Sequence record: NC_054912.1
Direction: 5' to 3' (one strand)
DNA length: 64,000 bases
From: Escherichia phage vB_EcoM_F1
The notes below the pieces were generated by a model, which saw nothing but the letters and a program-made list of their open reading frames with translations, had not been told where the DNA came from and made no database searches. Each line of letters starts with the position of its first letter. The stretch's first letter is position 1. Positions 55,608-61,670 of the stretch are shown here, piece after piece. Made by a program: the position numbers and the translations under genes.

Positions 55608-56065
55608 TCAGCCTTATATTCAATAACAGGACATACTTTAGCTTTACGAGCTTTTAAAAATTCAACGATAATCGATTTCTTGGGTTGAATAGGAGGTAAA
55701 CCTTTATTTTTCCTATCAATGTTTTCTACGTGTAAAGCATAATCCTTTTTCCATTTATAATCTTTATATTTTTCACGCAAATGTACAGGAATAACAAATG
55801 AACCAATAATAAGTAAAACAAGCAAAATGGCAAGTATAAATGCTGATGGAAGCAAAGTCCATAAACTACCGAAAATAAGCCATCGTTGTAAGCTTTCTGC
55901 ACAAATAATTGTTAGCCCTACGAGTATAGCACACCCAAAAATAGAAACGAAAAATGTAGGGATAACAATAGACCAAAAATATGCGCATAGTGTCTTAGGT
56001 CGTTGCCATTCATCGTTAAACAATTTGAATAATTTATAGTGCCAAGAGTTTTCATTAATAATCAT
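55604..56065 (-). CDS. polytopic membrane protein (153 aa)
   Basis: three to four hydrophobic helices; ATGA overlap with upstream stop. Confidence 0.5.
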   Translation of the reverse strand: MIINENSWHYKLFKLFNDEWQRPKTLCAYFWSIVIPTFFVSIFGCAILVGLTIICAESLQRWLIFGSLWTLLPSAFILAILLVLLIIGSFVIPVHLREKYKDYKWKKDYALHVENIDRKNKGLPPIQPKKSIIVEFLKARKAKVCPVIEYKAE

Positions 56066-56067
56066 AA

Positions 56068-56589
56068 CTATCCTTTCATTGAAGGCGTAACAGTTGTTAA
56101 ATACTTAATCATAGCTTCAGCTTCTGATTTTGATAGTGAAATTTCTCCATTGTTTTGACGAATAGAAATAAAATCCGGATGACGGTCACCACCAGCTTTT
56201 AAAACACACATATAAGTATCAGTTTCATCTTCAATATCTGAAATGATTGAAGCAGTTCCACATGAATGTGGTTTTTGATAAATCAATACAGCTTTTCTTC
56301 CACCGTTTGACTGTTCATAAACTTTTAACACATCAAACAAATCGCTTCTTTTATCAATAGCTAAGATGTTGTTTTCATCTTCAATATTAAATCCTTCGGA
56401 TACTTCATAAAGTGTCACCCATAAATCACCAATATCAATAACAGCGTTCACTTTTCCATGACTTTCAAGAGCATTACAAATTTTCTTAATTTCATCATAA
56501 CTCATTTTAATAATATCATCTCCTTGAATAAGGAAGATGTCATTTTTAAATTCAACACGAATTAAACCACTTCCACTTGAAATAAACAT
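56068..56589 (-). CDS. hypothetical protein (173 aa), paralog of 56596..57129
   Basis: shared C-terminal segment (EAEAMIKYLTTVTPSM vs DEAIALKTYLDSVIPTM). Confidence 0.5.
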   Translation of the reverse strand: MFISSGSGLIRVEFKNDIFLIQGDDIIKMSYDEIKKICNALESHGKVNAVIDIGDLWVTLYEVSEGFNIEDENNILAIDKRSDLFDVLKVYEQSNGGRKAVLIYQKPHSCGTASIISDIEDETDTYMCVLKAGGDRHPDFISIRQNNGEISLSKSEAEAMIKYLTTVTPSMKG

Positions 56590-56595
56590 ATTTCC

Positions 56596-57129
56596 TCACT
56601 TTGAAATCATAGTTGGAATGACAGAATCGAGATAAGTCTTTAGCGCAATAGCTTCGTCTTTGGTAAATGTGACAATATACGATCGAAAATCATCAATTTG
56701 ACGAATAGTTAAGACATCACCATCTTCATAGCATTTTGATACGTTTAAAACAGTTTCATCATTCTGATTGCAAGCGTTAGTAATAATAGCATTGCAATTT
56801 TTGAGCCATTTTAAACTATGTTTTCTTTCATTAGAATAATAAAAATATTTAATCTTATCTATAAAACTATCCCAATGGATAACTGATAAACACATTGACT
56901 CACTTTTAATATTAAATCCTGGGCATGAAGAATAAAAATGAATTTTGTGCTCATCATTGATGCTTACTATTTTATCAGTATAAGGATATTCAATTTGGGT
57001 TAAATGAATGATTTCACTAGGCGTAAAATATAGCATATCGTCTTCTTGTGTCAAACGATACATATTATTTACTTTTTCTATAGCTAATTCACCAAAAAGC
57101 GGACTAACTTCTAATACTAATCGTTTCAT
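56596..57129 (-). CDS. hypothetical protein (177 aa), paralog of 56068..56589
   Basis: ATG at 57129 with AAGGA RBS; track ORF extends to 57150. Confidence 0.5.
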   Translation of the reverse strand: MKRLVLEVSPLFGELAIEKVNNMYRLTQEDDMLYFTPSEIIHLTQIEYPYTDKIVSINDEHKIHFYSSCPGFNIKSESMCLSVIHWDSFIDKIKYFYYSNERKHSLKWLKNCNAIITNACNQNDETVLNVSKCYEDGDVLTIRQIDDFRSYIVTFTKDEAIALKTYLDSVIPTMISK

Positions 57130-57130
57130 A

Positions 57131-57397
57131 TTAATCCTTTTTATTGGCACGAATTTGTTCTAAAATTTTAGAATATTCCTTTGTATCAGATTTACGTACA
57201 ATTGATACACTATAAGGCATACTATCGGTGTCTTTTATAAAGCGTTCCAAATGACACTCTAACAAAATTTCTGGATTATAAATCGTGTACATCAAATTAC
57301 CTGTTGCTCCACGATATTGGCAGATTTCTACTGATTGAACACCATTCCATAATTTTGTTAAAACTAAATCACCTACTTCTAATTTAGGAAAGCCCAT
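57131..57397 (-). CDS. hypothetical protein (88 aa)
   Basis: track ORF 57131..57409 trimmed to ATG at 57397. Confidence 0.4.
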   Translation of the reverse strand: MGFPKLEVGDLVLTKLWNGVQSVEICQYRGATGNLMYTIYNPEILLECHLERFIKDTDSMPYSVSIVRKSDTKEYSKILEQIRANKKD

Positions 57398-57398
57398 G

Positions 57399-57584
57399 TT
57401 ATTCACCAATTAAAGTTTCAATATAAGAATCAAGATTTACTTTAGCTTCTTCCATAAGAGTTTTGTATTTAATCTTGTTAGCATGTCCGGAGAAAGCTGA
57501 TTCATCAATAACTGTTGCTGTATGAACAGCTTTGCTATATGTTTCAATTAATTCTTTTAATTTAAAAGCCTGCTCACTTGTCAT
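57399..57584 (-). CDS. small helical protein (61 aa), member of a short-protein family
   Basis: N-terminus MTSEQAFKLKELIETY resembles 57912..58106, 58109..58300 and 60108..60293. Confidence 0.45.
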   Translation of the reverse strand: MTSEQAFKLKELIETYSKAVHTATVIDESAFSGHANKIKYKTLMEEAKVNLDSYIETLIGE

Positions 57585-57713
57585 TACATACTCCTTTGAA
57601 TAATATCAATAATGTTGTTCACCAGATTATAAGTAAACATTGGGTAATTATATTGAATCATCACATACACAACAAACAAAACTTTCATTCTCTTCTCCTT
57701 GGCAGTTGACAAG

Positions 57714-57746
57714 ATTACTATACCATAACCTTGCCAACTTGTAAAC
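57714..57746 (-). promoter_or_regulatory. T4-type early promoter
   Basis: minus strand GTTTACaagttggcaaggttaTGGTATAGTAAT. Confidence 0.45.
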
Positions 57747-57911
57747 CATTAAATGACGTTTTCAATAAAATTCTGAAGCTTTGTATGAGCATCAACCATG
57801 ATTTTCAATTCTTCTTTAGCGAAAGCTGTACCTCTTTCACGAGAAGAACATTCATAGTCAGAAACTGCATTAGCATATTCTTCAATTAGCTTCATTAAAA
57901 ACATCTGCTTT

Positions 57912-58106
57912 TCAGTTTTCATTATTCCACCTAATCATTTCAAGATATTGAACTAACTTAGCTTTGGATTTATCCAAATCCTTTTTAGCTGCTTCTATAC
58001 CGTCGTATGAATATCCTTCACAATGCTCAACTGCTAATTGGTATGAATCTATTTCAATATCACGTGCTAATTTAATGATTTTTTCAAACTGTTCACGTGT
58101 TAGCAT
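57912..58106 (-). CDS. small helical protein (64 aa)
   Basis: MLTREQFEKIIKLARDIEID... Confidence 0.45.
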   Translation of the reverse strand: MLTREQFEKIIKLARDIEIDSYQLAVEHCEGYSYDGIEAAKKDLDKSKAKLVQYLEMIRWNNEN

Positions 58107-58108
58107 AC

Positions 58109-58300
58109 TTACACTCTCGTATTATGATCGATAATTTCATCAAGAAACATATCTAACGCTTCTACAGCATTATTAAATTTAGCTTCAAATTCTTCAATAC
58201 CTGATAAACCTGATAAGGCAAAGTTAATGCGTTCCTCATCTGCTTTACGAATTGAAGCCACTAATTCCTTGATTTTATCCGCTTGCTCTACACTAATCAT
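58109..58300 (-). CDS. small helical protein (63 aa)
   Basis: ATG at 58300 ([17 protein letters not shown]); track ORF extends to 58336. Confidence 0.45.
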   Translation of the reverse strand: MISVEQADKIKELVASIRKADEERINFALSGLSGIEEFEAKFNNAVEALDMFLDEIIDHNTRV

Positions 58301-58488
58301 TATTCCACCACATATGAAAGAGAGAATATTGCACACGCCATGTGAGTTGCAACTTCATCACACATATCATAACGTTTCTTAAGAAGTTCTACAAGTTCTT
58401 CACTAGTGACTTCATCCATGTCGACGAAAAAATCACCATTAATGATGACATAGATATTTCCTTCTTGATTAAGTGCTTCAATTTTCAT
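58300..58488 (-). CDS. small hypothetical protein (62 aa)
   Basis: ATG at 58488 with GAGGAG RBS downstream of an early promoter; track start is TTG at 58533. Confidence 0.45.
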
Positions 58489-58514
58489 GATGTTCTCCTC
58501 TTTATCCGATGGTT

Positions 58515-58546
58515 GTATAGTATCACAGCTCAAATGGAAAGTAAAC
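58515..58546 (-). promoter_or_regulatory. T4-type early promoter
   Basis: minus strand GTTTACtttccatttgagctgTGATACTATAC. Confidence 0.45.
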
Positions 58547-58561
58547 CGGTAAAATGAAAAA

Positions 58562-58579
58562 AGTCTCCCGAAGGAGACT
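58562..58579 (-). terminator. stem-loop agtctcc-cgaa-ggagact with U-run
   Basis: 7-bp stem, UUCG loop, minus RNA followed by uuuuucauuuu. Confidence 0.55.
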
Positions 58580-58583
58580 AATG

Positions 58584-58859
58584 TTATTCGAGGGAAAGAA
58601 GATACTTACTCTGGTAAAACATTCCAGTAATATCATCTATCGTGCTTTGGATGGCTGGAGGCATTTCTTTATAAATGCTGTTAGATTGGTCTAGTATGCG
58701 ATCAATCATTTTAATTGTGTCGGTAGGAAGTTTACTAGCATCTGGAATTGAAGGTGTGTATTTTCTACCAGAATACCCCAAATATTGCTCACCAAATTTA
58801 TCAATCAAATCTGGCAACTCGGAGAAAATAAAATCGTCTAGCATAACTTTTAGTTTCAA
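58584..58859 (-). CDS. hypothetical protein (91 aa)
   Basis: track ORF. Confidence 0.45.
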
Positions 58860-58955
58860 AATGCGCAGAATGAAAATAAGCTTGTGCAGCCATTAATAAA
58901 CCTAAGTATTCATCTGCCTTTGAAGGTTTTCCACTTTGTGAAAAGTCGCTGAATT

Positions 58956-59249
58956 TCATTCAGTCTCCAATTTAATGTTCATAATTCTAGCGTATGATTG
59001 TGCCATCTCCGCGCCTCGCTCTATACATTCAAAATCGGAAGAGCACGGGTCATTTTTATAAGTCGTTCGCATAAAACTATAGAACTGTTCAGATGATTCT
59101 ACGCTTTTATTTTCAAAAAGCATATAAACGTGTCTAATACCAGATTCCATAAATTTATCAAAATGAGGATCGACATTCGCTTCAATTGGTGGAGATAAAG
59201 CAAACGCTAATCCTAGCATGGCAAATAGTGCCGTTGCTTTTAAGGCCAT
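58956..59249 (-). CDS. rI: lysis-inhibition regulator rI (periplasmic antiholin)
   Basis: 97 aa with N-terminal signal-anchor MALKATALFAMLGLAFALSP; recognised as T4 RI. Confidence 0.8.
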   Translation of the reverse strand: MALKATALFAMLGLAFALSPPIEANVDPHFDKFMESGIRHVYMLFENKSVESSEQFYSFMRTTYKNDPCSSDFECIERGAEMAQSYARIMNIKLETE

Positions 59250-59261
59250 AAAGGCCTCCTA

Positions 59262-59474
59262 TCATTTTTGTCCTGTATTTACTTTATGCCGATGCACGGC
59301 CTTAACTTTATCAAGGTATTTTTCAAAATTTCGCAATCTAGTATAGTCTGCCGGAGATTGGTTGAGTGATACTTCTCGACGCAAAGCTGAAATGATATTT
59401 CCAACTTCCCTACGAATTTCATCTAATTGAAGAACAGTAAGATTGCAAAGTTGCTTTTCAGTTAATTGTAGCAT
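59262..59474 (-). CDS. hypothetical protein (70 aa)
   Basis: track ORF. Confidence 0.45.
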
Positions 59475-59516
59475 ATATACCCCTTTAGTTAGATAAACCT
59501 ATTTATAACTTTTGCA

Positions 59517-60098
59517 CTAACCGAGCTTTTTAGTTAATTCGTTCCAATGTTTTCTACACAAAGAAACATAAATTTCATCACCAATACAGATTTGATTACC
59601 TTCTTTAACTGGTGTTCCATCTTCCATTAATCGAGCTGTCATAATAGCTTTTTTACCACAATGACAAACTGCCTTTAGTTCAATAAGTTTATCTGCAATC
59701 GCCAAAAGTTCTTTAGAACCTTCAAATAATTTTCCAGCGAAATCAGTCCTTAATCCATAAGCCATAACAGGAACATTATATGTATCAACAATTCGGCTTA
59801 ATTGATGCACTTGTTCAGTTTTTAAAAACTGAGCTTCATCTACAAATACGCAATGAATATCTTTTTGTGCTTCAGCCCATTTATAGAACTCGAAAATATC
59901 CATATCATCTGTAATAATATTCGCTTCCTGCTTAATTCCAATGCGAGAAACGACTTCACAGACAGAATCGCGAGTATCAATAGCGGGTTTAAGAACTAAT
60001 ACACTCATTCCACGTTCTTTATAATTATGTGCGGCAGTCAAAAGAGAAGCAGATTTTCCAGCATTCATTGCTGCATAAGTAAAAATTAAACTCGCCAT
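59517..60098 (-). CDS. tk: thymidine kinase
   Basis: 193 aa; P-loop AAMNAGKS; C-terminal Zn site CHCG...C; recognised as T4 Tk. Confidence 0.9.
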   Translation of the reverse strand: MASLIFTYAAMNAGKSASLLTAAHNYKERGMSVLVLKPAIDTRDSVCEVVSRIGIKQEANIITDDMDIFEFYKWAEAQKDIHCVFVDEAQFLKTEQVHQLSRIVDTYNVPVMAYGLRTDFAGKLFEGSKELLAIADKLIELKAVCHCGKKAIMTARLMEDGTPVKEGNQICIGDEIYVSLCRKHWNELTKKLG

Positions 60099-60107
60099 AT
60101 CACCTTC

Positions 60108-60293
60108 TTAAAGCGTATTCACATAAGCTATTAATTCATTTTCTTTCTTATCAAACCGATCAGCAAATTCTTCCTGCTGTTCGGGAGATAACGGGCCGTA
60201 TTCATCATAAAAGGTGTTTGCTTCTGTATGCTCATCTAGAAGTTCATGGATAAGCTCAAATAATTTATCTTTTTGTTCTTTACTCAGACTCAT
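60108..60293 (-). CDS. small helical protein (61 aa)
   Basis: MSLSKEQKDKLFELIHELL..., same short-protein family as 57399..58300. Confidence 0.45.
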   Translation of the reverse strand: MSLSKEQKDKLFELIHELLDEHTEANTFYDEYGPLSPEQQEEFADRFDKKENELIAYVNTL

Positions 60294-60459
60294 ATATTAA
60301 TTTCCAGGAGTTTTAAAATAATTCGCTTTTGCTTAAATATTTCCATAGTTAAATGACCAGTATCTTTTTGACCGATTCCAATGGCAAAACCTTTATTAAC
60401 AGCGAGTTCAATTAAATTATCAAGCTCACGTAACACTTCGTATTGTAACTCAAAACTAT

Positions 60460-60666
60460 TCATTTTGGTTTACCTTCTTTAACGAAATCTGGATAAGGAT
60501 AAAATCCCGAATAAAATCCTTCACCTTTATGATTGATACATCCTTTATTAGAACAATAGCACCAATAATCGAAATCACAAGCCATTTCATCGTTGCATAA
60601 AGCAAAAACAACCGGCCACTTACACTTTTCACAATGGGCATTTTTAAGAATACTAGTTTGGCTCAT
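60460..60666 (-). CDS. Cys-rich small protein (probable Zn-binding)
   Basis: CEKC...C...C.C..C motif; ATG at 60666 overlapping upstream stop (ATGA); track ORF extends to 60687. Confidence 0.45.
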   Translation of the reverse strand: MSQTSILKNAHCEKCKWPVVFALCNDEMACDFDYWCYCSNKGCINHKGEGFYSGFYPYPDFVKEGKPK

Positions 60667-60875
60667 AACCATGTCACCTTCAAGCAATATTCTTCTACGT
60701 GCTGTTTGCGACCTTTCTTATCAATAAAGGTATATTCAACGAATGTTCCAATGTAGTCTTTATCTACATCATGTAGACTATTAATTGGGCATTTAGTACG
60801 GCAAATGCGTTCCCATTGACGAATAATTTCTGCTTTGTTTTTAGGATCAAACGGATGCGGGTAATGCACTTTCAT
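60663..60875 (-). CDS. hypothetical protein (70 aa)
   Basis: track ORF. Confidence 0.45.
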   Translation of the reverse strand: MKVHYPHPFDPKNKAEIIRQWERICRTKCPINSLHDVDKDYIGTFVEYTFIDKKGRKQHVEEYCLKVTWL

Positions 60876-61326
60876 AATCCACCACTATTAAATCAATATC
60901 AGGAGTAAACATGTCGATTAATTTAGAAACCTTATCCCAATCACCGCCAGCAATACCACAACCTATGCGTGGAATGTAAATTACTGGTTTAAACAAAAGG
61001 GTTTCTGCCTGTAGATTTAATTCTATCATGCAGTTTACTAAAGCACCATAATCAAGATTAGGACCTGGTTCGTATTGCGTATACAAGTTATAACATATGC
61101 CAAAACCATTAGGTTTATGTTTAAAAACAATAGACATATCACCGAGTTTTTCACGCGAACCATATTCAGTAGTAGTTTTATCTATTTCTAAAATTTTAGG
61201 ATAGGCCCTTGCTAATTGACCAGCTACACCACTGCCCATTGTATGAAAACAATTGCATCCATGCGCAATATTTTTACCTTCAGCGAAAAGGGCGACAATA
61301 TCGCCCTTGATATATTTTACAATCAT
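60847..61326 (-). CDS. macro-domain protein (predicted ADP-ribose binding/hydrolase)
   Basis: 159 aa with HGCNC...GSGVAG and GCGIAGGDW glycine-rich loops typical of macro domains. Confidence 0.6.
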   Translation of the reverse strand: MIVKYIKGDIVALFAEGKNIAHGCNCFHTMGSGVAGQLARAYPKILEIDKTTTEYGSREKLGDMSIVFKHKPNGFGICYNLYTQYEPGPNLDYGALVNCMIELNLQAETLLFKPVIYIPRIGCGIAGGDWDKVSKLIDMFTPDIDLIVVDYESALPASV

Positions 61327-61670
61327 CTAGTACTCAATCCTCGATTATAAGAATCTACCAAACGGTCAACCATTGAATGACAAGCGGCTTTATCTTTCTC
61401 CTCCGCAACTGAACATTCTAAGGTATTCCACTTTTTAGCATATCGTTTTAATAATGTATCGTTTTTGTATCTGCTTGATTTATCTCTTTCTCCGTCTTTA
61501 TATGCATATATTAATTTCTGTGCAAATTCAGCTTGGCATGCTTTATTTTTCCCACAATAATCTGCCGCAGTGCGGTTTACATATTCTCTAATTTCAGTAT
61601 ATGATGTATCTGCTGACGCAGAAGCAGAAAATGAAATTAATCCTATACATAAAACCAAAATTTTAGTCAT
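61323..61670 (-). CDS. secreted Cys-containing protein (115 aa)
   Basis: signal peptide MTKILVLCIGLISFSASASA. Confidence 0.5.
   Translation of the reverse strand: MTKILVLCIGLISFSASASADTSYTEIREYVNRTAADYCGKNKACQAEFAQKLIYAYKDGERDKSSRYKNDTLLKRYAKKWNTLECSVAEEKDKAACHSMVDRLVDSYNRGLSTR

Follow-up and report, generated by a model that had tools for sequence, protein, structure and literature searches.

Five paralogous DUF7438 genes, encoding small predicted helical-hairpin proteins, in the mobD-tk region of Escherichia phage vB_EcoM_F1

Among the small early proteins of bacteriophages, T4 AsiA, T4 Alc and lambda Kil are mostly dispensable for plaque formation in the laboratory, and each works by binding a host protein and not as a catalyst. 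A different kind of small regulator is found in the ColE1 plasmids, where the RNA-binding protein Rop (also called Rom), a helical hairpin of 63 amino acids (aa) that forms a homodimeric four-helix bundle, stabilizes an RNA kissing complex. Phage T4 carries a set of short genes, whose products MobD.3, MobD.4, Tk.1, Tk.2 and a frameshifted MobD.2a make up its complement of the domain of unknown function DUF7438. The paralogy of these genes is already on record, in the form of Pfam family PF24219 (DUF7438), PHROGs 653, 2758 and 4859, and the named T4 genes mobD.2a, mobD.3, mobD.4, tk.1 and tk.2. A single group, phrog_653, holds MobD.3, MobD.4, Tk.1 and Tk.2 together (see also the supplement of PMC11879866), and T4 Tk.2 and Tk.1 both match PF24219. 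We describe here the DUF7438 genes in a stretch of 64,000 nucleotides from Escherichia phage vB_EcoM_F1 (NC_054912.1), which as a whole is called the window below. The comparison genome was that of Escherichia phage vB_EcoM_FN (MZ170041.1), a Tequatrovirus in which the window is 100% identical and has the same coordinates.

The window contains five paralogs of 57-64 aa on the minus strand, all belonging to PF24219, and these almost certainly form a real paralogous family of early hairpin proteins. Against a 57-position Pfam model with a gathering score of 25 bits, the five proteins (A to E in Table 1) score 53-70 bits and cover model positions 1-56 or 1-57. DUF7438 is characterized by a single domain of about 55-67 aa that forms two long helices; the lengths of the five proteins fit this description, as do the structural models of C and E discussed below. 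When profiles were built from four members at a time, the omitted fifth ranked first among all non-training open reading frames (ORFs) of the 931 in the window, with E values from 1.7e-5 to 0.16. In addition, a shared N-terminal motif occurs 3-4 times in these ORFs, against 0.000-0.095 occurrences expected from 200 within-ORF residue shuffles.

One might instead ascribe the resemblance to chance or composition, with short, AT-driven T4 ORFs rich in lysine and glutamate looking alike without being homologous or even coding. The pairwise comparisons would allow this: identity among the paralogs is merely 14-27%, the Smith-Waterman scores of six of the ten pairs lie within 2.5 standard deviations of those of shuffled sequences, and just 4/10 pairs reach z>=3.3. 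The combination of weak pairwise similarity with strong profile scores indicates, however, that the family is visible at the level of profiles and not of pairs. The chance explanation is refuted by the Pfam scores, the leave-one-out ranking and the motif counts, and also by ratios of nonsynonymous to synonymous polymorphism (pN/pS) well below 1, by the detection of T4 orthologs as proteins, and by confident AlphaFold2 models that give two paralogs (C and E) the same fold.

A first-pass annotation of the window, made from the letters and an ORF list, had proposed a dispersed paralog family of short alpha-helical proteins, with several copies between 57131 and 58488 and a further one near tk. 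The N-termini that it quoted, those of A, C, D and E, agree with the sequence letter for letter, and the four copies are real; a fifth, B, had been missed. The span does hold A to D, but it also takes in three genes outside the family, those for the Phage_tudor protein, the 34-aa MobD.2 and MobD.5. The proposal is otherwise well founded. The Pfam and PHROG matches and the leave-one-out profiles establish paralogy; the N-terminal similarity goes beyond composition, given the shuffles, the leave-one-out ranking and PF24219 E values of 3e-14 to 3e-19; the two AlphaFold2 models (pLDDT, the predicted local distance difference test score, of 92 and 95) have two long helices each; and the family is dispersed, with four copies in the mobD.2-mobD.5 cluster and one adjoining tk. 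Copy number and conservation across related phages, which had been suggested as a check, are described below.

Because the best PHROG matches differ among the members, PHROGs divides what Pfam unites. The best match is phrog_653 for C, D and E, phrog_4859 for A and phrog_2758 for B; weaker cross-matches connect A and B to each other's groups, A also to phrog_653, and D and E also to phrog_4859. Compared with T4, the window has an intact B, of which the T4 version lies in two frames as the result of a frameshift, and an extra gene, A, that T4 is without, and it has no gene of the Tk.1 type, a sixth type referred to here as F. The start of D was taken as the ATG at 58300, although the ORF list extends this gene to an upstream GTG.

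A family hidden Markov model (HMM) searched against the 931 ORFs of the window found no sixth member, the next best ORF having E=0.2. Two ORFs considered as members, rI.1 and the phrog_3452 ORF upstream of E, gave profile-profile probabilities of 0.6% and 1.1%, respectively, and are unrelated. The rest of the phage FN genome yielded one weak candidate with the family HMM (E=0.085), a 76-aa ORF adjoining pseT at 134234-134464 on the minus strand of MZ170041.1 (L005:20438-20665). It starts MISWHQFEHLKGLIYE and ends DLHDYIQSLVEKNK, and both terminal motifs are weakly matched around a longer middle. This ORF has no Pfam match and is not counted as a member; it may be a very divergent extra one. 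Two twilight candidates were seen in Edwardsiella phage PEi20, at L009:14534-14707 (PF24219 E=1.7e-4, below the cut-off) and L009:11826-12011.

Table 1. DUF7438 paralogs, neighbouring genes and putative transcription signals (positions are those of the window)
Feature	Position	Strand	Product or sequence	Matches	Remarks
Paralog A	57399-57584	minus	61 aa, starts MTSEQAFKLKELIETY	PF24219, 58.1 bits, E=1.1e-15; phrog_4859, E=4e-38	no T4 counterpart
Paralog B	57749-57922	minus	57 aa, MKTEKQMFLMKLIEEY	PF24219, 54.2 bits, E=1.9e-14; phrog_2758, E=4e-35	intact form of T4 MobD.2a
Paralog C	57912-58106	minus	64 aa, starts MLTREQFEKIIKLARD	PF24219, 64.1 bits, E=1.5e-17; phrog_653, 2e-25	ortholog of T4 MobD.3
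Paralog D	58109-58300	minus	63 aa	PF24219, 53.4 bits, E=3.3e-14; phrog_653, 3e-17	ortholog of T4 MobD.4
Paralog E	60108-60293	minus	61 aa, starts MSLSKEQKDKLFELIHELL	PF24219, 69.6 bits, E=2.9e-19; phrog_653, 1e-26	ortholog of T4 Tk.2
MobD.5	58300-58488	minus		phrog_3024	not DUF7438
MobD.2	57584-57688	minus	34-aa hydrophobic ORF, MKVLFVVYVMIQYNYPMFTYNLVNNIIDIIQRSM		T4 MobD.2 counterpart; not DUF7438
Phage_tudor protein	57131-57397	minus	88 aa	PF24144, full-length, E=3e-40	not DUF7438; directly downstream of A
y05I-like ORF	56596-57129	minus		T4_y05I_N and T4_y05I_C domains	tandem paralog of the next
y05I-like ORF	56068-56589	minus		T4_y05I_N and T4_y05I_C domains
rI.1	59262-59474	minus			not DUF7438
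phrog_3452 ORF	60290-60463	minus		phrog_3452	not DUF7438
rI.-1	58584-58959	minus	overlapping ORFs 58584-58859 and 58801-58959		indel near 58837
Putative early promoter of the mobD.5-D-C-B unit	58517-58546	minus	GTTTAC, 18 nt, TACTAT; TG two bases upstream of the -10 hexamer		read from sequence
Promoter-like site	57717-57745	minus	TTTACA, 17 nt, TATAGT, with TG	consensus scan 10/12	B-A spacer
Terminator-like hairpin	58562-58579	minus	perfect 7-bp GC-rich stem AGTCTCC-TTCG-GGAGACT, then T run on the minus strand	terminator scan

AlphaFold2 models calculated from family alignments show DUF7438 as a single antiparallel coiled-coil helical hairpin of about 60 aa, mostly acidic. The predicted helices span residues 5-32 and 37-60 in E (pLDDT 92) and 4-30 and 34-63 in C (pLDDT 95.1). 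By column statistics, the heptad a/d hydrophobics fall at 11/14/15/18/A21/25/29 in helix 1 and 40/43/47/(A/S)50/54/57/58/61 in helix 2; small residues (Ala21, Ala/Ser50) occupy the middle of each helix, and the near-invariant L14 and L54 stand opposite each other. The N-terminal consensus, M-[IL]-[TS]-x-E-Q-x-x-K-[LI]-x-x-L-[IV], looks like a helix N-cap leading into the initial a/d positions of the helix 1 core, where [ST]-x-E-Q is presumably the cap, judging from general knowledge of helix capping. At the open end of the hairpin it would pack against the C-terminal consensus, L-x-x-[FY]-[ILV]-x-x-[LI]. Conservation is concentrated at this open end and the half near the loop is variable; in D the central loop differs in length between phages, with indels of 4-7 aa.

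The open end carries additional hydrophobic residues at positions 12, 15 and 58 that broaden the apolar face, which provides indirect support for oligomerization. A free hairpin of 60 aa would also be expected to need partners to bury its apolar stripe, and the whole-chain structural matches of the same size, which include Rop and de novo designed helical-hairpin oligomers (5j0j, 8d06, 6dlm), lend this argument indirect support. The chances that the proteins form an oligomeric bundle seem about even. Another explanation, modelled on Rop, is that hairpin dimers, as four-helix bundles, bind RNA or DNA structures (for example phage early transcripts or host RNAs) and thereby tune expression. The polar residues E6, Q7 and K10 are conserved on a single face of helix 1, as might suit such a regulator, and the genes are expressed early. 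On the other hand, there is no sequence relationship to Rop, neither as a match to the Pfam Rop family at E<=1 nor in a PDB profile search at E<=10. Furthermore, the five window proteins are acidic (isoelectric points 4.3-5.3, net charges -2 to -10), as is most of the wider family, and no basic patch is conserved family-wide. A Rop-like activity is therefore considered very unlikely.

The family is transcribed early, made as protein in the first minutes of infection and individually dispensable, as results from phage T4 show. The RNA is classed as early for all five T4 members; the protein is classed as early for MobD.3 and MobD.4 and as middle for Tk.1 and Tk.2, and none was detected for MobD.2a (PMC9697503, supplement). 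Primer extension located an early promoter of T4 mobD.5 that gives a RegB-insensitive transcript (PMC1702504), and the MobD.2/2a spacer contains the early promoters Pe57954 and Pe57.9 (PMC6024815). Knock-down of mobD.2a, mobD.3, mobD.4, tk.1 or tk.2 by CRISPRi-ART, which uses dCas13d, was scored 'Not Fit', that is, without fitness effect (PMC11879866, supplement), and the T4 interval from nrdC.11 to mobD.3 can be deleted (PMC9825161).

Sequences in the window are consistent with the same pattern of expression. The site ahead of mobD.5, which is below the threshold of the consensus scan, is the putative early promoter of a mobD.5-D-C-B unit. The second promoter-like site is upstream of the 34-aa MobD.2 ORF and A, in a position that matches T4 Pe57954/Pe57.9. 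Between rI.-1 and the putative mobD.5 promoter is a hairpin that scores as a terminator on both strands and that would mark the upstream boundary of the cluster's transcription unit; in phage NBG2 a terminator is annotated at the equivalent position. With the T4 data, these signals suggest that transcription of the family genes begins at sigma-70 early promoters shortly after infection. A search of Rfam returned no RNA family within 56000-61500. The ORFs within each cluster are spaced by -11 to +2 nucleotides, so that starts overlap or abut the preceding gene: the start of B overlaps the end of C by 11 nucleotides, and that of D overlaps the stop codon of MobD.5 by one base (58300). Likewise, the start of E, immediately upstream of tk, overlaps the stop of the gene before it (ATGA). 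These arrangements are compatible with coupled translation.

The family is narrow in distribution. A word-indexed search gave 120 clusters (90% identity), whose sources are all T4-like phages or contigs of phage size, and an exhaustive HMMER search of 1.84 billion representative proteins gave 35 matches, with no apparent homolog on a bacterial chromosome among them. All but two of these matches are short (33 proteins of 29-76 aa); the long ones, P0121 (a TPR-STAND NTPase) and P0133 (a repeat protein), are false positives driven by repeats. Kanagawavirus, Gaprivervirus and Karamvirus-like phages have members of the family as well. Beyond the Straboviridae, single copies above the Pfam cut-off were found in the N4-like Gamaleyavirus IME11, where the gene is in the left-end region next to a gp1-like gene, and in the Jedunavirus KLPPOU148. 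Matches by tblastn were found to A in 191, B in 490, C in 584, D in 503 and E in 740 of 50,697 phage records. Few small early genes of the T-even phages are as widespread as those of DUF7438, at least one type of which occurs in 740 of these records. The orthologs of D are diverged, 399 of the 503 being only 60-80% identical, yet the flanking DNA is 95-99% identical.

Copy number was compared in 16 tk/mobD loci, assembled from those found with protein C (7 returned) and supplemented with annotated phage records. Each region has 2 to 5 intact copies. Types C and E are present in 16/16 loci and D in 14/16, and B is intact in 10/16; A and F are each found in 4/16. T4 and JE01 carry frameshifted or truncated versions of B. 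Selection on the genes is purifying and is relaxed in the middle. Pooled pN/pS in the N-terminal 22 residues is 0.00-0.22 for A-E and 0.57 for the Tk.1-type F (4 sequences); the middle gives 0.21-0.71 and the C-terminal helix 0.06-0.50. The loop was also considered for diversifying selection, which is not supported, since the middle value is raised but stays below 1.

These comparisons bear on the possibility that the proteins are helpers of the phage's own proteins, serving as adaptors or chaperone-like subunits for, as examples, Tk, other enzymes of nucleotide metabolism, or the y05I-like or tudor neighbours, with no host target at all. In Tequatrovirus, Gaprivervirus and Kanagawavirus the gene directly upstream of tk belongs to DUF7438, the members overlap or abut their neighbours in a way compatible with coupled translation, and C and E occur in all 16 loci compared. 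However, the N4-like and Jedunavirus copies are in unrelated contexts with no tk nearby, tk is itself dispensable, the knock-downs of family genes caused no defect, and turnover in copy number fits accessory genes better than fixed subunits. We regard helper functions as quite unlikely.

Our best guess for the role of the family, held with low confidence, is that DUF7438 members are accessory early proteins that oligomerize and bind host or phage partners. They would act solely by binding other proteins. They would probably form helical bundles as homo- or hetero-oligomers, and each paralog would engage its own host or phage partner, the identity of which would be set by the variable half of the hairpin. 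The role would be in host takeover or counter-defence and not in an essential step of replication. The accessory character is supported by the copy number of 2-5, the patchy occurrence of A and F, the broken B genes, the record counts and the lone copy in IME11. A non-essential accessory binding role is somewhat more probable than its absence. A function specifically in counter-defence is possible but unlikely. Several points weigh against the proposal. The conserved motifs may be purely structural, consisting of an N-cap and a hydrophobic core. The lack of a knock-down phenotype could reflect either redundancy among paralogs or a true lack of function in laboratory E. coli. Finally, a middle-region pN/pS below 1 amounts to relaxed constraint and not to demonstrated diversifying selection, which weakens any reading in terms of an arms race.

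A more specific version would make the proteins modular early inhibitors, in which the conserved open end oligomerizes and the hypervariable half near the loop picks a host target among defence or stress-response proteins. This seems improbable on present evidence; if true, the gain, loss and frameshifting of copies in nearly identical T4-like phages and the spread to N4-like phages and Jedunavirus would be traces of an ongoing arms race.

The locus corresponds to the mobD.1-mobD.5 / rI / tk block of the T4 annotation, all of its genes are on the minus strand, and the region is matched by about 570 phage records, mostly at 95-99% identity. Read 5' to 3' on that strand, the order is tk.4, tk.3, a Zn-binding ORF, the phrog_3452 ORF, E, tk, rI.1, rI, rI.-1, the terminator hairpin, MobD.5, D, C, B, the spacer with its promoter-like site, MobD.2, A, the Phage_tudor ORF and the two y05I-like ORFs. 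The part near tk is mosaic. The T4-type Tk.2 allele goes with a Tk.1 (type F) gene between Tk.2 and tk, and the window-type E allele goes instead with the Zn-binding ORF (PF23895) and the phrog_3452 ORF upstream of E, with no F.

At the other end of the block, A and the tudor gene are both absent from T4 and look like an insertion/deletion module. In the interval from B to A, the MobD.2 ORF closely follows the promoter-like site, and the Shine-Dalgarno sequence of A falls within the 3' end of this ORF; in the metagenomic protein P0013, which has a precomputed match to Pfam PF26864, a MobD.2 ORF is fused to B. The y05I-like genes resemble MobD.1, a 'putative transcription factor'. T4 has one such copy plus the MobD homing endonuclease, which the window phage is without. 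In T4 and Yersinia phage PYPS2T, rI.-1 is a single 128-aa gene; compared with these, the window has an 11-bp deletion that breaks it into two overlapping ORFs. Either phage FN has a genuine pseudogene here or the assembly is in error.

Several public product names in this region are wrong and should not be propagated. Protein A is labelled 'helicase loader' (phrog_4859, RefSeq), but BLASTP against the phage's own gp59 of about 217 aa (L005:33118-33771) gave a best E of 0.46 over 8 residues, and A has no helicase-loader Pfam match; the label is spurious. Orthologs of C and D are called 'molybdopterin-guanine dinucleotide biosynthesis protein MobD' in RefSeq, and no MobA or MobB match was found in Pfam or NCBIfam at E<=1. 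This name appears to derive from the T4 gene symbol mobD, which denotes a mobile homing endonuclease. In related RefSeq and GenBank records the same spurious name is attached to MobD.1, MobD.3 and MobD.4, and other spurious names are 'ABC transporter ATP-binding protein' for the 70-aa Tk.3-like protein, 'thioredoxin' for NrdC.11 and 'starvation-inducible transcriptional regulator' for rI.-1.

Searches for a function gave little, and the first-pass view of the family as one of unknown function stands: searches of the PDB (by sequence and by fold), NCBIfam and PADLOC brought up no homolog of known function, and the literature searched held no functional study. The main texts do not contain 'DUF7438', 'mobD.3', 'mobD.4' or 'mobD.2a', the genes being named only in supplementary tables. 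The available part of the report on a Mosigvirus AV110 early-gene toxicity screen (45 proteins) names no DUF7438 member among the positives. The best PDB sequence-profile match was an uninformative one to a coiled-coil kinetochore protein, the DASH complex subunit Spc19 (E=0.011), and a PDB 'anti-CRISPR protein' (23aa_A, E=0.013) was rejected because the match consists of two fragments, each non-significant (i-E ~3.5). NCBIfam gave no informative match, and BFVD returned only uncharacterized small phage proteins. In PADLOC-DB nothing was better than E=0.008 (12 bits, a methyltransferase), and so the family was not placed with known defence or anti-defence proteins. What has been found is a rediscovery of a catalogued domain. 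It is in no way out of the ordinary for accessory early regions in T-even phages, and its importance would depend entirely on the discovery of a function.

Among known structures, the top Foldseek matches in the PDB were the dimerization and histidine phosphotransfer (DHp) hairpins of histidine kinases (best E=0.14). The likeness to the HK853-type DHp domain lies in a helical hairpin that dimerizes to a four-helix bundle. It is a limited one, with E values of 0.14 or worse and template modelling (TM) scores of 0.48-0.56, and DUF7438 differs in having no attached catalytic domain. No histidine is conserved in the family alignment, and so no phospho-acceptor His box is apparent. With AsiA, Alc and Kil no sequence or specific structural similarity was found, and the comparison is a functional analogy only. 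Early synthesis, several copies per genome and the dispensability of each copy in laboratory hosts together form the usual profile of host-range and counter-defence accessories.

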